NCBI GenBank assembly: GCA_050179755.1
Contig: JBFXEV010000001.1
Coordinates: forward strand, 329,994 to 393,993
Length of the DNA: 64,000 nt
From: Candidatus Babeliales bacterium
Lineage (GTDB): Bacteria; Babelota; Babeliae; Babelales; JBFXEV01
Direction: 5' to 3'
The first letter of the stretch is position 1. The number at the start of each line of letters is the position of its first letter. Made by a program: the position numbers. This document shows, piece by piece, positions 8,338-59,300 of this stretch.

Positions 8338-11300
8338 TGGTTCAAATCCAGCCCCCGCCACCAAATTGTTTAAGGTACCTTAATTATAAACTTTTCTTTT
8401 TCTGGCTTTTGCCATAAACTTTCTCCACTATATCAACTCAGTTATAACCCCTGTTTTGGCACTATGTCTGCATCTTCTTATAATTCATACTTGAAGATGA
8501 AAGGCGCTGTAAAAGAAATTAATGCAGTGCTCTGCATTACTAACTATATGAATATTAATCCAAACCGAAAGACCATTTTCCATGTCAAATCGTCGTGAAT
8601 TTAACGGCCAACGTAACGAACAACGTGAAGCTACGCTGGACGCGTTAACAGTAGGCCAAGTTCTTAAAGGAACAGTAAAGAACATTACTAATTATGGTGC
8701 ATTCATTGATATTGGAGGTATCGACGGCCTTCTTCATATCACTGACATGGCTTGGAAACGTGTTGGTCACCCAAGCGAAATCATTAATGTTGGCGATAAA
8801 ATAGACGTAAAAGTACTTGCTATCGATAAAGGCAAAGAGCGTATTTCTCTTGGTATCAAACAATTGCTAGACAACCCTTGGGAAAAAACTGTTAAAAGTA
8901 TTATTCCAGGTTCAACTATACGCGGCACAATTTCAAACATTACTGATTACGGTATGTTTGTAACTATCGCAAAAGGTGTTGATGGCCTTGTACACATTTC
9001 TGAAGTTTCTTCAAATGGACGTGTTGACAACTTACATCACATGTTCAATGTTGGCCAAGACGTTAGTGTAAAAGTTCTTGGTATCGACAACGATAAACGT
9101 AGAATTTCATTAAGCATGAAATAAGCTTATAGTTTAAAAAGCGAGGACTCCAAACAACCAATTGGAGAGTCCTCGCTTTTTGTATTTTTTGCTCCTAATA
9201 TAAAGAAGTTGTTTAAACTTGATTTGCCAAGAGCACTTTGAGCAATTGAATAAGTTTATTGGTATTTTCATAGCTATTTCTCGCTATGTGTTTGGCGCGT
9301 GCAATGTAGTGTAAACAACTTAATTGCACATCTTTATTAAAAAAAGGATTGTCTAGAAACCCTGCCAGTGCAGTATATTCATCAAATTTATTACACAATA
9401 CATCGGGAGTATAGAGATTAACTAACTGCACTAATGCCGCTGTATAGCTTTTTAGTCCCTGTAGTTCAGCATCAGTAAATGCAACCGAGTCATCCAAGAA
9501 ATGCTGAACGTTCTGGAATGAAGAAGCACACAAATCTTGATTGAACGAAGATGCCATATCTATGCCATAAAAAATATCAGCCGCCTCATCATAAAAATAA
9601 TTGCTTCTACCACGGCCAGCATTACCTACGAAAGTATCTAAAGCAACAAGTGCTGGTAAATTTTTATGACGCGACATATGATATATTATCTCTCTTGTGA
9701 GACCAAGAACTTTTTCTTTTCCATTTTGACGAAGATTTAACCCTTTATATATCTTACCTTGATACAAATCAAAACGAACGCCTGGTACATATGTATGAAG
9801 TGTTGCAGGACTACCAAGATCTTTACCAATATATGTTATAGCCGCTGGAATAAGACTGGCCTGATTCAAGGAAACAGAAATAGAATGCCCTATATCAAGA
9901 GCTACCATCTCACAGACACAGCGTGCTAAGCGAGCAAAATCATCTGCAAATTTAATTTGTTTTATGAGAAACCAAACACCTGAAGTATCTTGAAAAATAG
10001 TAATTTCACAATAGGGATATTCAACATATTTGCAGGATTCTTTTATTGGCTTAATGTCTCTGTAATCAATACCTTGAACCCTACATGCACTTAGAAGCAG
10101 GAAAACATACATTAAAATAATCTGGCTCATGATAAAAAGCCTTTTCTTGTCAACAAGCTCTTAAGAAGCCTATCAAGCTCAATTGCATGCTCATAATTTG
10201 CCAACATTATTTGGTTGCACCATGCAAAAAATTTAAAGCAATTTTTCATAGTTTCTTGATCAAAGAATGTTGTATCATAAAAGCCAGACAATCTAATATA
10301 CATTTCAAATTTATCCCATATTGCTCTAGGGGGATAAAGAGTAACCAATCTATGTAACGTTTCATAATATAACAATAATCCTTGAAACTCTTGTTCCGAA
10401 AAATCGACTTGTTCATTAAAAAAAAGAGTATACATATTTTCTGTAGAAAGCGCACATAATTTTCTGTTGAAGGCATCTGCCATATCAATACCTATAAAAG
10501 AATCAGTTGCTAGATCGTAAAAATAATTCCATCTACCCCGATCTCCATTCCCAACAAAAGTATCTAAGGCAACTAGAACAGGCAAATCATTATGGCGAGA
10601 CATGTGATAAATAATTTCTCTGGTTAATCCCGTTATCTTATTTTGAGCATTTCTTTGTCTAATATGTAATCCTTTATACTGCGTTCCTTGATATTTATCA
10701 AAACGAACACCTCGTGCATATGTGTGAAGTGTTGCAGGAAGATCAATAAGTTTACCTATAAATGGCACACCGGCAGGAATAAGCGCTGCATAATTGAGTG
10801 GTGCTTCAATAGAATGCCCTATATCAAGAGCTACCATCTCACAAACCAATTGCGCTGGATCAAATACATTACTATCCCTTAAAAGCTTTATTTGCTTTAC
10901 AACATACTTATTGCCAAATGGATCAATCAGAAATGTAATAGAAGAATGCAGACAATCCATATGACCATAAGATTCTATTTCTGTTACCAAATCTTGGTAA
11001 TTAATATTTTCACCGCCTCTTTGCGGAGTCAACATTAATGGTAAATAGAACGCAAGTCGCTTAGTAATATATAATCCAGACACAGATCGCGTTTTTCATT
11101 CTTAGTCATTCTTTTTTATTTTAGCGAGACTCTCAACTTTTTATGTCCTTTTTTCATTGGCTTCTTCCAAAGACCTGAAAAATGATGAATAGCCATAGTC
11201 TCTTGTTGCACCCACTTATATGGTCCATCATTCTTTTTACCCCATGCATAAAAGTAATTTTGTGGGAAAATTACATTAACGCCATCACAACTGGTTAACA

Positions 11301-56300: not shown

Positions 56301-59300
56301 TATTTTATGATAATGCAAAACTAGGCGGGAATCTCAGCTTACATACTCATGCAAATTACACAGCTTGCCTTCCAATCGTACCTACCCACATAAGCATGAA
56401 AGAGTATGTGATGAGCTTACTGCAAATTAATGCGCAACTATTCAATAAAGAGTATAATGCACGTTATTAAAAACACATAAAGGAAAATCATGAATATTTT
56501 TTTTCAAAAACTACTAACGTGTCTTTTCTTACTCAGTATGCCAAGCATACAAGCACAGCTATTTCCAGATTATTTTGTGGATTTTGATACAGCGATGCTG
56601 TGCAACCCAGACGATGCTCTCTCTTATCAAACAGCGATTGAAGCAGATGCCAAAAACAACAACTTTTTTAGCTATGCACGTGCGCAATATACAAAATACA
56701 TAATCGAACAACCAGACTATTGCCAAGAACCACGCATTCCAAAAAAAATTCACCAAATTTGGGTAGGTCCTAACACGCCACCAGTCCATTTTAAAACATG
56801 GCAGGAGTCTCTCTTAAAACTACACCCAGATTGGGAATATAAACTCTGGACCGATGAAGACGTTAAGCATTTAACAATGATTAATCAACGTCATTACGAT
56901 GCAGAAACCAATTATGGCGCAAAAGCTGATATATTACGCCTTGAACTTCTTAATCAATTTGGTGGCGTTTATGTGGACATTGATTTTAAATGCATTAAGC
57001 CATTTGATCCATTGCATCATCTTTGTGACTTTTATATAGGTTTTTTCCAAGCAATTTTTATGCGTGGAAGAGCGCGCATTAATAATGGCATCTTTGCAGC
57101 AACGCAAGGTCACCCACTCATTAAAATTCTTATTGAAGAAATTGGCAAAAATAGAGATCAATACCCTGATTTGACAAGTTGGAGCGGCATATTAGCACGC
57201 AATGGCCCTGATTTTGTAACAAGGATTATTCACACCTATCTACCGCAACTTGAAGGCATTAATATTATATTTCCTTCAAACTATTTTTACCCATGGTCTG
57301 GCGCACCAAAAAACCTGCAATTGCACGTGCAACCAGAAACAATTGCCATACATTATTTTGCAAGCTCATGGGATCCTAAGGTGCATGACTTACCGCATCT
57401 GCAACAACTAAAGCAACGTTAATAACTTTGCTTGGAGTCAATGAAGAACATATTTGTCACCCTATACGCTCTAGGTTTTCTTGCCTGTTGGGCGGCACCA
57501 TGCCTTCCAAGCACTACGGAACTTCCTTTCATAATTTCAGTCTGCGCTTATAATGCAAGCGCTTGGGTTGAGAAAAATTTAGAATCTCTCTGCACGCAAG
57601 AGTACAGCAACTTCCATATAGTCTACATTGATGATGGTTCTGAAGATGACACGGCACAAAAAGTTGAAAACTATAGAACACAACATAATGTACAAGATAA
57701 AATTACGCTCATAAGAAACCAAACGCGCCAACGCAAAATGAAAAATATTTATACGTTATTTCATAATTGCCCAGATGAATCTATTATCATACAAGTTGAT
57801 GCCGATGATTGGCTAGCGCATAACAAAGTTTTTTGCATTATTAATAAAACATACCAGGAGCAAGATGTATGGCTCACGTATGGCCAATTTCAAGTGCATC
57901 CAAGTAAGCAAATGGGCTATTGCAGACAAGTACCAAGTGAAATACAAAAAAATCGTGACTATCGCAAGTATAGATTTGTATACACGCATATTCGCACATT
58001 TTACGCTTGGCTCGTTAAATTAATTAAACTACAAGACCTCATAGCAGAAAATATGCCTGCTCCCTATACTGGCCGTTTCTTCCCCGTGGCAAATGATAAC
58101 GCTATTTATTTTCCTATGCTTGAAATGTGTGGCAATCGATATGCCTTTATTCCCGATATTTTATATATCCATAATCATGAGAACCCCCAATATGGTCGCA
58201 TTCTTGAGCCCGATCTTTATCATACTGCTCGTGCTGATATAAGATCCCGCCGCAAATATGAAGTACTTAAAAACAAAACTCTTAATCGCTTGGAAGCTTT
58301 TAAAGACGCCAGAGCAACCGCCATTCTTCTTTCAAACGATAATCCCACTGGTCTGCAAACACTCATAGAATCTATCATTGCCCACACTTCAGGAATAAAA
58401 GATATTGTGGGGATCTACCACGCTTCAAATGACACTATTAACACTCACTACCATAAGGTGATCGCACAGCATCCCTCTATCAAGTGTATGCCCGTTGCCA
58501 CAGATTCCGCACTTGCTGCCTTAAAATCGTGCATAAACAAAAGCACATCTGGTCATATACTCCTTGCACAAGATATCGTGTATATAAAAAAACCCATTTC
58601 ATTCAGTGCCTGCATATACGAGCTTGAACGCACGGGAGCTTATGGGTTTTATTTAAATTATGCGCAGAACAAAATGCCTTTTTATTTTCCACAAAGCAAA
58701 AAGGAACATATTGCGTCTCAAATACTTAATAACGAACTATCTGCTTGGAAATTTAATTGCGGTACGTTTGCGCTCTATAATAATATTGATATGACATTAT
58801 TACGAAAACATGATCTTCTTACAAGACTTGATACTCTTGAACCAAAAGCAACATTTTCACTCGATGCATTTCTTGGTGCGTGGCATACCAATAAAGCAAT
58901 TGATGGCCACATGATAGGCCTTTATTACCAAGATGCCCACCTTGATGGTGGGCGTACAAGAATAGTAACACCTGCTATAGAAAAACCACTGCTCAGTTTT
59001 AACTTGGAAAATTACTATAAACAACAATCATGGTTGCCAAATGATTTATCCAAGGAATTGATGCACTTTCTCAAGTAATGTACGTGCATTACCATATGTC
59101 AAATGTTTAATGGCCTCGTGATATGGCAACCATTTATAACCCTGATGCTCATGGGAGAGAGTTACCACCTTGGAAAGCGTTTGCCCCAAGAAAAAGGTGA
59201 CTGTTTTATGCACGCGCTCATGCGATGTTCTATCAGTTAACCAATAGGCAAAAGATTCTTCAAACCCCGGCACCAATTGTGCTTTAAGGCCAGATTCTTC

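Follow-up and report, generated by a model that had tools for sequence, protein, structure and literature searches.

Babeliales are bacteria of the protist-parasite type. According to the Chromulinavorax paper, 44% of the CDS carry signal peptides, the cells reside in the host cytoplasm, and LPS genes are lacking (PMC6561590). The Babela paper names type II as the only secretion system found and assumes that signal-peptide proteins are secreted by it into the amoeba cytoplasm; "glycosyl" occurs there once, within "DNA glycosylase" (PMC4378268), in agreement with the first-pass annotation, which had stated that "glycosyltransferase" does not occur in that paper.

The locus described here lies in a window of 64,000 nt (the whole stretch of DNA that was analysed) from a Candidatus Babeliales bacterium. 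ORF listing and Pfam scans gave a run of glycan genes without a break at 9213-59078. The reading of this island as a large locus for glycan assembly is supported, and so is the absence of LpxC from the genome, as reported before. Nearly all of the island's about 40 enzymes bear N-terminal leaders, which suggests that assembly of a sugar coat takes place outside the bacterial cytoplasm, the building blocks probably coming from the host cell.

Gene content and turnover of the island

The island spans 49,866 bp (3.3% of the 1,525,295-bp contig) and has 40 ORFs of at least 100 aa in our own gene call, with the most upstream ATG, GTG or TTG taken as start. Its features and their flanks are (window coordinates, strand; evidence in brackets):

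8582-9124 (+): S1-domain protein; left border, conserved flank (Pfam S1; 92% identical in the congener, where it also borders the island)
9213-10130 (-): HipA_2-like (kinase-fold) paralogue 1 of 5, lipobox-like leader (blastp paralogy)
10127-11083 (-): HipA_2-like paralogue 2 (blastp paralogy, Atlas structure, leader)
11116-12060 (-): GT32-domain glycosyltransferase with leader (Gly_transf_sug 4.7e-15)
12708-13577 (+): Methyltransf_24 methyltransferase with leader; candidate rhamnose O-methyltransferase (Pfam 2e-10)
14020-14985 (-): GT32-domain glycosyltransferase; 20-residue hydrophobic run, possibly an anchor (Pfam)
14946-15962 (-): polysaccharide pyruvyl transferase with leader (PS_pyruv_trans 2.2e-18)
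16226-17122 (+): GT2 glycosyltransferase with leader (Pfam)
17136-18137 (+): GT-A-fold glycosyltransferase outside Pfam families; candidate rhamnosyltransferase (AlphaFold model)
18134-19147 (+): paralogue of the GT-A-fold family (38% identity to 17136-18137)
19193-20302 (-): GT32-domain glycosyltransferase, lipobox-like leader (Pfam; nearest solved chains)
20446-21342 (-): short GT47 (exostosin C-terminal half) with leader (Exostosin_GT47 2.6e-19)
21531-22961 (+): GT2 glycosyltransferase with leader (Pfam)
23073-24038 (+): NRS/ER-type UDP-4-keto-6-deoxyglucose 3,5-epimerase/4-reductase, leader of about 35 residues (4qqr match)
24631-26022 (+): UDP-glucose 6-dehydrogenase (UGDH) 1, 22-residue leader before the Rossmann domain (Pfam, TIGR03026)
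26145-27149 (+): GT2 glycosyltransferase with leader (Pfam)
27139-28326 (+): GT4 glycosyltransferase with leader (Glycos_transf_1 2.1e-38)
28323-29174 (+): Methyltransf_24 methyltransferase 2 with leader (Pfam, blastp)
29259-30143 (-): GT32-domain glycosyltransferase (Pfam; 75% identical to 11116-12060)
30164-31381 (-): GT4 glycosyltransferase with leader (Pfam)
31506-32690 (-): GT4 glycosyltransferase with leader (Pfam)
32854-34527 (+): long GT2, 557 aa, C-terminal ~300 aa unnamed (Pfam, blastp)
34622-36019 (+): UGDH 2, 30-residue leader (Pfam, TIGR03026)
36016-37671 (+): long GT2 with leader (Pfam)
37668-39945 (+): two paralogous proteins (403 and 357 aa) with leaders, family unnamed (51% mutual identity)
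39881-41563 (+): long GT2 (Pfam)
41560-44034 (+): GT2 + GT32 two-domain glycosyltransferase with leader (Pfam)
44037-48464 (+): QueC-like PP-loop ATPases, three of four paralogues (44037-45518, 45689-47077, 47121-48464)
48485-49111 (+): GNAT acetyltransferase with leader (Acetyltransf_8 7.5e-16)
49160-50488 (+): fourth QueC-like PP-loop paralogue (blastp, motif conservation)
50726-53464 (-): three HipA_2-like (kinase-fold) paralogues with leaders (Pfam, blastp, Atlas structure)
53665-54747 (+): GT32-domain glycosyltransferase (Pfam)
54800-56470 (+): long GT2 with leader (Pfam)
56490-57422 (+): GT32-domain glycosyltransferase with leader (Pfam)
57432-59078 (+): long GT2 with leader (Pfam)
59461-61104 (-): MurJ-family flippase; right border, conserved flank (MurJ 2.9e-87; 86% identical in the congener)

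Pfam (E<=1e-3) names 19 island proteins as glycosyltransferases: nine with Glycos_transf_2 (GT2), among them a fusion with a GT32 domain, seven with Gly_transf_sug/Caps_synth (GT32, this fusion included), three with Glycos_transf_1/Glyco_transf_4 (GT4) and one with Exostosin_GT47+RXYLT1_C. One PS_pyruv_trans protein brings the total to 20; the island is thus rich in glycosyltransferases, as had been claimed, but the proposed number of 21 GT-type Pfam genes was not reproduced. Two further proteins (17136-18137 and 18134-19147) have a GT-A fold by structure. The other enzymes include two UGDHs, two Methyltransf_24 proteins, one GNAT and one NRS/ER-type UDP-rhamnose synthase. Our counts coincide with those of the first-pass annotation for the 40 genes, the two UGDHs, the two methyltransferases, the pyruvyl transferase and the Gly_transf_sug proteins (nine in a genome-wide search, seven of them in the island). 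The low G+C attributed to part of the island was also recovered: window positions 10-34 kb have 34.0% against 39.1% for the genome, and none of 251 24-kb segments, sampled across the genome at 6-kb steps, is at or below 34.0% (minimum 34.45%).

The congener has its island in the same chromosomal slot, between the same MurJ and S1 genes. Most genes of that island are only 35-64% identical; it has one GT32 gene versus seven here, lacks the three GT4, the two Methyltransf_24, the pyruvyl transferase, the GT47 and the GNAT genes, and contains several fragments and in-frame stops. The locus is hypervariable, with rapid turnover.

The NRS/ER gene and other enzyme families

The assignment of 23073-24038 (g00345) as an NRS/ER-type enzyme stands. 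It matches Arabidopsis NRS/ER (PDB 4qqr) over residues 37-317 (E 3.3e-101) and Mimivirus L780 (7jid) at 1e-64; its Rossmann motif lies at residue 43, its YSFTK motif at 168. A dN/dS of 0.04-0.09 against the congener shows purifying selection on the gene. The UDP-rhamnose route proposed for this bacterium is, however, incomplete: the genome has neither a UDP/dTDP-glucose 4,6-dehydratase nor a remnant of one. In relatives (G002-G004), the dehydratase gene adjoins NRS/ER, and the congener's copy is split into two ORFs. NRS/ER is no rarity imported into this organism, as a relative is encoded at 575 of 599 pattern matches in prokaryote contigs (one genome per species); these contigs come from Dependentiae, Chlamydiae, CPR phyla and other groups. 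In a tree, the leader-bearing bacterial sequences form one clade (support 100/98), yet a tree that holds all bacterial sequences together is not rejected (p-AU 0.269). The direction of transfer is therefore not given by the tree (AU p 0.27). The notion of genes taken from eukaryotes is only partly supported: the presence of an NRS/ER-type enzyme stands, but bacterial homologues are widespread.

GT32 and GT47 enzymes are ordinary within the phylum, contrary to the novelty that had been seen in Golgi-type enzymes: PF04488 is present in 63 of 151 sampled Dependentiae genomes, and the best relatives of the GT47, at 41-66% identity, are bacterial metagenome proteins; where these carry a name, it is that of Babeliales, Chlamydiales or Omnitrophota. 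The short GT47 covers only positions 149-293 of the Exostosin_GT47 profile and matches EXT1 (4e-9) and PBCV-1 A075L (3e-4). For the GT32 at 19193-20302, the nearest solved chains are YeGT (1.6e-7), the Photorhabdus toxin PaTox (7e-6), Och1 (1e-4) and Legionella SetA (6e-4). The two-domain protein 41560-44034 has Glycos_transf_2 at residues 40-163 and Gly_transf_sug at 581-653.

The Pfam N-domain of UGDH 1 begins at residue 24, matching the profile from position 2; the protein scores 418 bits on TIGR03026 and has a GGSCLPKD motif. In UGDH 2, which is 79% identical to the congener's copy, the N-domain starts at residue 32 (TIGR03026 428 bits).

The protein from 17136-18137 has no Pfam match even at E<=1. 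Its AlphaFold model (pLDDT 87.6) matches 293 PDB chains at E<=1e-3, the best being GT-A enzymes; it has a conserved DSD motif, and its domain also occurs fused behind NRS/ER in another locus (L197:556-2376). We consider it a GT-A-fold glycosyltransferase without a Pfam family and a candidate rhamnosyltransferase. NRS/ER also occurs fused to CmcI/Methyltransf_24 elsewhere (P0133-P0135, P0139), and the Methyltransf_24 protein from 12708-13577 is a candidate rhamnose O-methyltransferase.

The four PP-loop paralogues are 43-60% identical (blastp), with SGGxDS and a Cys cluster conserved. The nearest folds of the model (pLDDT 94.1) are QatC, TtuA, NcsA, TilS and QueC, and the family has a profile match to an NAD_synthase-domain protein (2.4e-4); they may be exported QueC-like ATPases of a previously unnamed family. 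For the five kinase-fold paralogues, HipA_2-like is a lead only (Pfam score under the cut-off, Atlas structure TM ~0.6 to HipA_2 clusters). The paralogue pair at 37668-39945 has no Pfam match at E<=1 and no PDB sequence match.

N-terminal leaders

Leaders were scored with our own heuristic, in a stricter version for genome-wide counts. All 39 island proteins of at least 150 aa, including both UGDHs and NRS/ER, which are cytoplasmic in other organisms, have an uncharged hydrophobic run close to the N-terminus (median length 13 residues, at least 19 in 3/39, median start at residue 8). A net positive stretch precedes the run in 36/39; mean charge falls from +1.74 ahead of the run to -0.38 over the 15 residues behind it, with a more positive N side in 32/39, a bias that reads as the N-in/C-out pattern. 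The stricter heuristic flags 31/40 island ORFs versus 556/1299 elsewhere in the genome (Fisher odds ratio 4.6, p 1.4e-5). Leaders are thus enriched in the island but not specific to it, 43% of the other ORFs being flagged too. With the same heuristic, 4/42 ORFs of E. coli rfb+wca were flagged (WbbK, Gnd, Wza and AsmA; two truly exported), as were 30/325 in CPR loci. The leader of a GlmU-like gene at 95 kb would be removed by starting at an internal Met.

By eye, the leader is present in 45/48 NRS/ER loci at 49-79% identity (Dependentiae, Chlamydiae, others) and in 0/31 at 38-45% (30 CPR-titled and one Oceanicoccus MAG). The heuristic flags 91/111 near NRS/ER homologues, 136/189 ORFs around NRS/ER in Dependentiae loci, and 32/40 of the closest versus 7/41 of the most distant representatives of the PP-loop family; the UGD of relatives has a leader too. 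To judge by sequence, the leader is a conserved feature of NRS/ER homologues, and the island leaders probably act as functional Sec signals.

Proposed function and alternatives

We propose, with a probability of about one half, that the island encodes an exported glycan-assembly toolkit that uses host-derived activated sugars. Its enzymes would leave the cytoplasm by the Sec pathway: glycosyltransferases, decorating enzymes (methyl, pyruvyl and acetyl transferases, PP-loop ATPases, kinase-like proteins) and also the nucleotide-sugar enzymes (both UGDHs and NRS/ER). If they are exported, the glycan or glycosylated target would be assembled beyond the inner membrane, in the periplasm, at the surface, or in the host cytosol after type II secretion. 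That compartment would have to hold host-derived UDP-sugars, NAD(P), SAM, acetyl-CoA, PEP and ATP, although NADPH and acetyl-CoA are large molecules for an ordinary porin to pass. The final location, the substrate source and the identity of the acceptor are what we infer.

The first-pass annotation had pictured a conventional surface-polysaccharide locus. In such a locus the enzymes would use the bacterium's own nucleotide sugars, on the cytoplasmic side of the inner membrane. The annotation overlooked the leaders and the missing carrier and export genes, which change the likely site of the chemistry. We now find the conventional reading rather unlikely, even though leaderless GalU, GalE, GMD, Fcl and a WbpP-like epimerase could supply activated sugars, and the fast turnover of content is reminiscent of O-antigen or capsule loci. 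By Pfam scans, Bac_transf, Wzx, Wzy and ABC2 genes are all absent from the island, which lacks an initiating transferase as well as a flippase, a polymerase and an ABC exporter, and the genome has no Bac_transf and no Wzy_C above cut-off. Export would fall to genes elsewhere (WecA/MraY-like, Wzx-like, MurJ or ABC-2), for which the genome offers two Glycos_transf_4 (MraY/WecA-type) genes, a single Polysacc_synt gene of marginal score at 661 kb, three ABC2_membrane genes outside the island, and the adjoining MurJ. GMD and Fcl form one gene string with a leader-bearing GT32, adjoining a GT47-like gene, which agrees with a cytoplasmic donor or with an enzyme that is anchored in the membrane and faces the cytoplasm. 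The hydrophobic stretches would merely be tethers, but most are too short for a membrane helix and have the N-in/C-out bias. Such a tether is absent from the UGDH and NRS/ER relatives of CPR bacteria, plants and viruses, and the E. coli control flags only one GT/nucleotide-sugar enzyme (WbbK). We know of no tether requirement for soluble UGDH and NRS/ER.

Equally exported, the enzymes might instead form an effector battery that glycosylates host proteins or lipids, or rewires host nucleotide-sugar pools, without any coat. Secretion as assumed for Babela, two secretins in the genome, and paralogue expansion with fast turnover, typical of effector families, are in line with this. GT32 domains score up to 33 bits on the TcdA_TcdB Pfam model, and their nearest solved chains are of toxin/effector type, but these matches are weak and do not extend beyond the DXD region. 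We consider the battery doubtful: no domain for targeting or translocation was seen, and the island unites some 21 glycosyltransferases, of five kinds, with two UGDHs and with methyl, pyruvyl and acetyl transferases, as expected of a complex heteroglycan pathway and not of single-sugar protein modification. Very improbable is that the leaders are a product of ORFs called too long in an A+T-rich genome and that the rhamnose branch is a relic. Most upstream starts were indeed used (compare the internal Met of the GlmU-like gene), the dehydratase is absent from this genome and in two pieces in the congener, and the congener's island has fragments and in-frame stops. Yet both UGDHs and NRS/ER have no ATG between leader and Rossmann strand, leaders recur in independently called database proteins and across two phyla, the A+T-rich CPR loci are rarely flagged, and NRS/ER is under purifying selection.

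As to supply and export for the exported toolkit, no nucleotide-sugar transporter family was found in the genome, a negative of little weight, since the PF04142 control matched in no genome. The genome encodes three TLC-type nucleotide transporters and two signal peptidases I, and its second GalU-like gene bears a leader.

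Gene content of the island

The window (G000:C1:329994-393993) is part of a single 1.525-Mb contig and carries an unbroken run of 40 ORFs, flanked by a conserved S1-domain gene at 8582-9124 and by MurJ at 59461-61104 (ORF listing, own gene call). These ORFs may represent an exported, host-fed toolkit for glycan assembly, a reading to which we assign a probability of about 0.5. The large glycan island of the first-pass annotation is present as described, while its 21 transferases are reduced to 20 Pfam-typed proteins, the pyruvyl transferase included; 19 proteins are typed as glycosyltransferases at E<=1e-3.

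Enzyme classes and features of the island (window 9213-59078)
GT2: 9 proteins, one with a fused GT32 domain (Pfam)
GT32, Gly_transf_sug/Caps_synth region: 7 proteins, including the GT2 fusion (Pfam)
GT4: 3 proteins (Pfam)
Short GT47: 1 protein (Pfam)
Pyruvyl transferase: 1 protein (Pfam)
GNAT: 1 protein (Pfam)
Methyltransf_24 (MT24): 2 proteins (Pfam)
UDP-glucose 6-dehydrogenase (UGDH): 2 proteins (Pfam and profile)
17136/18134: pair of paralogues, candidate rhamnosyltransferases
23073-24038 (+): UDP-4-keto-6-deoxyglucose 3,5-epimerase/4-reductase (NRS/ER) by similarity and motifs
44037-50488: four paralogues, putative PP-loop ATP pyrophosphatases

An all-against-all BLAST leaves four island proteins as singletons and groups the others into a small number of paralogue families (35-75% identity). 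The seven GT32 domains match the DXD region of PF04488 at 44-57 bits (curated cut-off 23), and this family was found in 63 of 151 sampled Dependentiae genomes versus 1 of 14 control genomes. The GT47 protein is one of a bacterial subfamily whose members are about 300 aa long; its Pfam match (70 bits) covers only positions 149-293 of the 293 in the profile. No other 24-kb stretch sampled in the genome is as A+T-rich as the first half of the island (G+C 34.0% vs 39.1%).

Predicted export leaders

When the N-termini are read, nearly every island protein opens with M-K/R and then a short hydrophobic stretch. An uncharged hydrophobic run is present in all 39 island proteins of at least 150 aa (median length 13 residues, median start at residue 8). 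It spans 19 or more residues in only three of these, and a net positive stretch precedes it in 36. The charge averages +1.74 ahead of the run and -0.38 over the 15 residues that follow it, and the N-terminal side is the more positive one in 32 of the 39. A Sec signal was scored as a positive n-region, an h-region of about 7-15 residues and an uncharged or acidic early mature part, using a heuristic of our own with controls; 39 island proteins were assigned such a signal. Two kinds of enzyme that are cytoplasmic in other organisms are extended as well: the Pfam N-domains of the two UGDHs begin at residues 24 and 32, and the match of NRS/ER to its plant counterpart begins at residue 37. The leaders are predicted to be cleavable Sec signals, a few of them lipoprotein-like (L-S-A-C-like boxes), and not membrane helices.

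A stricter version of the heuristic detects leaders in 31 of the 40 island ORFs versus 556 of 1299 in the rest of the genome (odds ratio 4.6, p 1.4e-5). As controls, the rfb and wca region of E. coli gave 4 leaders in 42 proteins (Wza and AsmA being true, Gnd and WbbK false positives), and loci from CPR bacteria gave 30 in 325. For Chromulinavorax, a signal peptide is reported for 44% of the proteins by Phobius (PMC6561590), which fits the 43% of our genome. Signal peptidase I is encoded in two copies.

The leader is shared with near homologues of NRS/ER, 91 of 111 being flagged by the heuristic. By eye, it was seen in 45 of 48 NRS/ER loci at 49-79% identity and in none of 31 at 38-45% identity, of which 30 are CPR-titled and the last is from an Oceanicoccus MAG. 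Around NRS/ER, 136 of 189 ORFs are leader-positive in Dependentiae loci and 65 of 170 in Chlamydiae-titled loci.

Polysaccharide export genes and nucleotide-sugar supply

Pfam detected no initiating transferase, flippase, polymerase, chain-length or ABC-2 gene in the island. Genome-wide, Bac_transf (initiating phosphoglycosyl transferase) is absent, the best Wzy_C match has 15.8 bits (cut-off 31.7), and Polysacc_synt has a single marginal match (661 kb). Two Glycos_transf_4 genes (MraY/WecA-type) lie far from the island, at 118 and 516 kb, and three ABC2_membrane matches, all outside it, at 739, 1062 and 1466 kb. MurJ borders the island as a conserved flank, and an ABC ATPase (61120-61821) is located outside, past MurJ. 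The island thus has the makings of neither a Wzx/Wzy-dependent nor an ABC-dependent locus (initiator, Wzx, Wzy, ABC-2 permease/ATPase). The genome also lacks LpxC, in line with the earlier description of a cell without LPS. Two secretins and three TLC-type nucleotide transporters are encoded.

As far as we know, textbook routes to bacterial surface glycans all begin on the cytoplasmic side of the inner membrane, since the nucleotide sugars are found on that side. It is unlikely, in our view, that the island encodes such a conventional cytoplasmic pathway with its enzymes tethered to the membrane. The island resembles the rfb (O16) and wca (colanic acid) clusters of E. coli K-12 in its long run of glycosyltransferase genes accompanied by pyruvyl and acetyl transferases and nucleotide-sugar genes, and its content is hypervariable between close relatives, as in classical Wzx/Wzy and ABC loci. 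However, WcaJ, Wzx, Wzy, Wza, Wzb and Wzc are encoded in the E. coli clusters, whose enzymes are leaderless, whereas the island is devoid of those genes and its enzymes all bear leaders, predicted not to be membrane helices.

A leaderless, cytoplasmic nucleotide-sugar set (GalU, GalE, GMD and Fcl) is encoded in the genome, with GalU at 1119.9-1120.8 kb. At G000:C1:575982-580093 (locus L209), leaderless GMD and Fcl (GDP-fucose synthesis) are in one string with a leader-bearing GT32, which is a caveat against the exported-toolkit reading. This string adjoins a GT47/RXYLT1_C-like gene and a gene for a 493-aa multi-pass membrane protein without a Pfam family. A second GalU-like gene (G000:C1:703600-704616; L213:3600-4616, -) has a leader of about 30 residues ahead of an NTP_transferase domain that begins at residue 32. 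Neither genome of the genus gave a match to the nucleotide-sugar transporter families PF04142 and PF03151; for PF04142 the blank is uninformative, as this family matched no control genome either.

NRS/ER and the rhamnose route

Full-length similarity and motifs identify the product of 23073-24038 as an NRS/ER-type enzyme. It matches Arabidopsis NRS/ER (PDB 4qqr) over residues 37-317 with an E-value of 3.3e-101 and Mimivirus L780 (PDB 7jid) at 1e-64. The Rossmann motif GxxGxxG reads GKQGWIG at residue 43 and the catalytic YxxxK reads YSFTK at residue 168, and these positions are invariant across 22 homologues. Against the congener (G158), dN/dS is 0.09 (NG86) or 0.04 (ML), with dS saturated, which points to purifying selection.

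The partner enzyme, UDP-glucose 4,6-dehydratase (UGD), was not found in the genome with the PF16363, PF01370 and TIGR01181 profiles or by tblastn. TIGR01181 reaches 142 bits at best, and tblastn with the UGDs of four relatives returned only SDR paralogues at 24-34% identity and no UGD copy or remnant. The extended SDRs of the genome are GMD, Fcl, GalE, a WbpP-like 4-epimerase and NRS/ER. Two candidates were rejected. The WbpP-like SDR at 1458 kb has UDP-GlcNAc/UDP-Glc 4-epimerases as nearest PDB entries, and the protein at 768 kb has a classical adh_short SDR domain and is no dehydratase. The latter (L010:985-2454, corresponding to G000:C1:768190-769659; 489 aa) resembles an exported oxidoreductase, with a leader and a Cys-rich N-terminal part some 140 residues long. 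In three of five relatives searched (G002, which is a Vermiphilus MAG; G003; and G004), a UGD-type match of about 300 bits adjoins or lies near NRS/ER, and this UGD bears a leader too. The UGD of the congener is broken into two ORFs (270 and 137 aa). For the UDP-rhamnose route that had been proposed, the NRS/ER enzyme is borne out by sequence, while the route itself is incomplete, the dehydratase being absent from the genome. Since NRS/ER is under purifying selection and no UGD is encoded, it appears to be retained without its usual partner.

The plant enzyme (UER1), the C-terminal domain of RHM and Mimivirus L780 match the island NRS/ER over the whole catalytic domain. Relatives of our genome share with Mimivirus the two-gene layout of dehydratase and epimerase/reductase; for L780, we take the partner to be the dehydratase R141. 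Plant and viral enzymes have no leader, whereas the island NRS/ER has one of about 35 residues and is encoded in a genome without the dehydratase partner.

By homology, NRS/ER is no rarity among bacteria; in 2011 the number of known bacterial homologues stood at just four (PMC3220709). Among 8000 candidates scored, 6945 database proteins match at E<=1e-20, and 575 of 599 pattern matches in prokaryote contigs (one genome per species) encode relatives. The best 80 loci are from Dependentiae, Chlamydiae (Parachlamydiaceae, Simkania, Rhabdochlamydiaceae), CPR phyla and some MAGs titled Pseudomonadota or Verrucomicrobiae. Relatives at 40-53% identity occur in 442 of 490 stretches of viral contigs.

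A tree was computed under LG+C20+F+G4 from 83 of 182 cut-out domains. The sample comprises two-thirds of the loci with a leader, one CPR locus in four, the first 6 and then every sixth viral locus, both archaeal-MAG rows and all 22 protein-database rows (20 grouped as eukaryote, 2 bacterial fusion proteins). Leader-bearing bacterial sequences form one clade (100/98; 34 rows), in which Dependentiae and Chlamydiae are intermixed. The CPR sequences form a separate clade (100/100), with eukaryotes and giant viruses between the two. Placing all 42 bacterial rows on one side costs 7.05 log-likelihood units and is not rejected (p-AU 0.269). The origin of this gene in eukaryotes, as claimed in the first-pass annotation, is thus possible, and we leave the direction of transfer undecided. 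The environmental chlamydiae with a leader-bearing NRS/ER are represented by loci L019-L045 (Chlamydiae-titled); their intermixing with Dependentiae suggests an exchange of exported glycan genes among protist-associated bacteria. Two archaeal-titled contigs are probably misbinned. In a quick tree, the RHM-like fused copy of L054 (Methanobacteriota-titled MAG) is inside the plant/algal clade (99*), and that of L055 (Promethearchaeota-titled MAG) groups with giant-virus contig L101 (100*).

Protein families without an assigned function

At E<=1, Pfam was of no help with 11 unnamed island proteins. For the 17136/18134 pair there is no Pfam match even at this level. An AlphaFold model of this family, based on 18 homologues (pLDDT 87.6), matches 293 PDB chains at E<=1e-3, GT-A glycosyltransferases being on top, with low TM-scores of 0.3-0.4. 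A DSD motif is kept in the family. A 607-aa fusion protein of another Babeliales genome (L197:556-2376) has this domain after a leader-bearing NRS/ER; for this reason, we propose the family as candidate rhamnosyltransferases. Natural fusions of leader-bearing NRS/ER, with this family or with CmcI/Methyltransf_24 domains, also include P0132 and occur in other Babeliales or metagenome contigs. In the database proteins P0133-P0135 and P0139, NRS/ER is fused to CmcI/Methyltransf_24 domains, which would point to O-methyl-rhamnose and to a role of the two MT24 genes of the island.

The four paralogues encoded at 44037-50488 (440-490 aa) have 1097 representatives at E<=0.001. Their SGGxDS PP-loop and a Cys cluster are conserved, F144, S145, G147 and D149 being invariant or nearly so in 42 sequences. 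Leaders are found in 32 of the 40 closest representatives versus 7 of the 41 most distant ones. The model (pLDDT 94.1) has QatC, TtuA, NcsA, TilS and QueC as nearest folds. These proteins thus appear to be exported QueC-like ATP pyrophosphatases, with membership held to the superfamily level because of the low TM-scores (<=0.38). We speculate that they act on uronic-acid carboxylates, a role suspected because two UGDHs are present.

Five paralogues of about 300 aa resemble HipA_2/PI3-4-kinase folds in sub-threshold Pfam matches and Atlas structure rows only, and the HipA_2 label is a lead only. PDB sequence searches with the products of 38872-39945, the second member of the 37668/38872 pair, and of 52559-53464 gave no meaningful match.

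Evolution of the locus

In the congener (1.87 Mb), the island occupies the same slot, between MurJ (86% identical) and the S1-domain gene (92%). NRS/ER and the second UGDH are 79% identical, while the best matches for most island genes reach only 35-64%. In the 60 kb examined there, no counterpart was seen for the three GT4, the two MT24, the pyruvyl transferase, the GT47 and the GNAT genes, and all seven GT32 map onto a single congener gene. Because the flanks are conserved and the island genes divergent or absent, the slot appears to be inherited vertically while its content is replaced rapidly, as in surface-antigen loci.

Of the 12 matches to the GT-A family in the congener island (G158:C1:960000-979000; loci L182-L208 and L211-L212), several carry in-frame stops or are fragments of 83-200 aa. 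These broken copies and the split dehydratase may be either real pseudogenes or long-read assembly errors. For our own genome, a reading of the leaders as an artefact and of the rhamnose branch as a relic in decay is highly improbable. Among the sequencing runs matching window 21500-31400, no RNA run is listed; there are three DNA runs from one study, which may be the source sample.

Proposed exported glycan assembly

Together, the island enzymes would need UDP-sugars, NAD+, NADPH, SAM, acetyl-CoA, PEP, ATP and UTP where they act. If they are exported, this need would imply a compartment in open exchange with the host cytosol. Chromulinavorax cells are located in the host cytoplasm according to PMC6561590, and in PMC4378268 Babela proteins with signal peptides are assumed to reach the amoeba cytoplasm via type II secretion.

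The nearest proven precedent would be Chlamydia trachomatis, which secretes GlgA and other enzymes of glycogen metabolism into its vacuole, with host UDP-glucose imported by SLC35D2 (Gehre et al. 2016, PMC4829429). The island would share with this intracellular bacterium carbohydrate-synthesis enzymes outside the bacterial cytoplasm, a host nucleotide-sugar feed and a polymer in a host-facing compartment. The chlamydial case, however, has few enzymes, type 3 secretion and one homopolymer and is experimentally proven, whereas some forty proteins with predicted Sec leaders are encoded in the island, among them enzymes that modify nucleotide sugars or decorate glycans.

The island also resembles the Golgi, with catalytic domains predicted across the membrane from the cytosol, GT32 and GT47 enzymes, and a nucleotide-sugar-converting SDR in the same compartment. 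The eukaryotic Golgi has type II membrane GT32/GT47 enzymes and a lumenal UDP-xylose synthase, while GT2, GT4, UGDH and NRS/ER are cytosolic in eukaryotes. In the island these four are tagged too, and the leaders are short and signal-peptide-like, not 20-residue anchors; nor did the search for PF04142 and PF03151 reveal a nucleotide-sugar transporter.

The enzymes might instead be host-directed effectors, which we regard as doubtful. YeGT, Photorhabdus PaTox, Legionella SetA and TcdA/TcdB share with the island weak GT32-type DXD matches and a predicted exit from the cytoplasm, but no delivery or targeting domains were seen in the island enzymes, which are embedded in a multi-enzyme glycan pathway.

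Building on the exported-toolkit reading, we tentatively propose, at somewhat less than even odds, that Dependentiae and some environmental Chlamydiae glycosylate 'outside-in'. A Sec-exported (perhaps type II-secreted) set of nucleotide-sugar enzymes, some twenty glycosyltransferases and decorating enzymes that depend on ATP, SAM, PEP or acetyl-CoA would assemble a variable heteroglycan directly from host cytosolic metabolites, dispensing with lipid carrier, flippase and polymerase. A dehydratase of the host would start the rhamnose precursor, and the orphan NRS/ER would complete it. If true, this would be a second, topologically inverted and host-fed way of building a coat, across a phylum of protist parasites and environmental chlamydiae, and could account for the coat of cells that have no LPS and hardly any metabolism of their own. 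The searchable literature, supplements aside, yielded no description of an exported glycan toolkit in Dependentiae and no treatment of UDP-rhamnose in Dependentiae or Chlamydiae. The analysis yields a bacterial NRS/ER clade, a candidate rhamnosyltransferase family outside Pfam and a putative exported QueC-like ATPase family.

Flanking genes

On the left flank, window 1031-5413 (-) and 7537-8124 (+) encode three proteins without a Pfam match, a lipobox protein of 441 aa and signal-peptide proteins of 1009 and 195 aa. On the right flank, beyond MurJ and the ABC ATPase, a gene without counterpart in the 60 kb of the congener examined (61871-62986, -) is of the TnpB/IS605 OrfB type (Cas12f1-like_TNB, 6.7e-21; OrfB_IS605).
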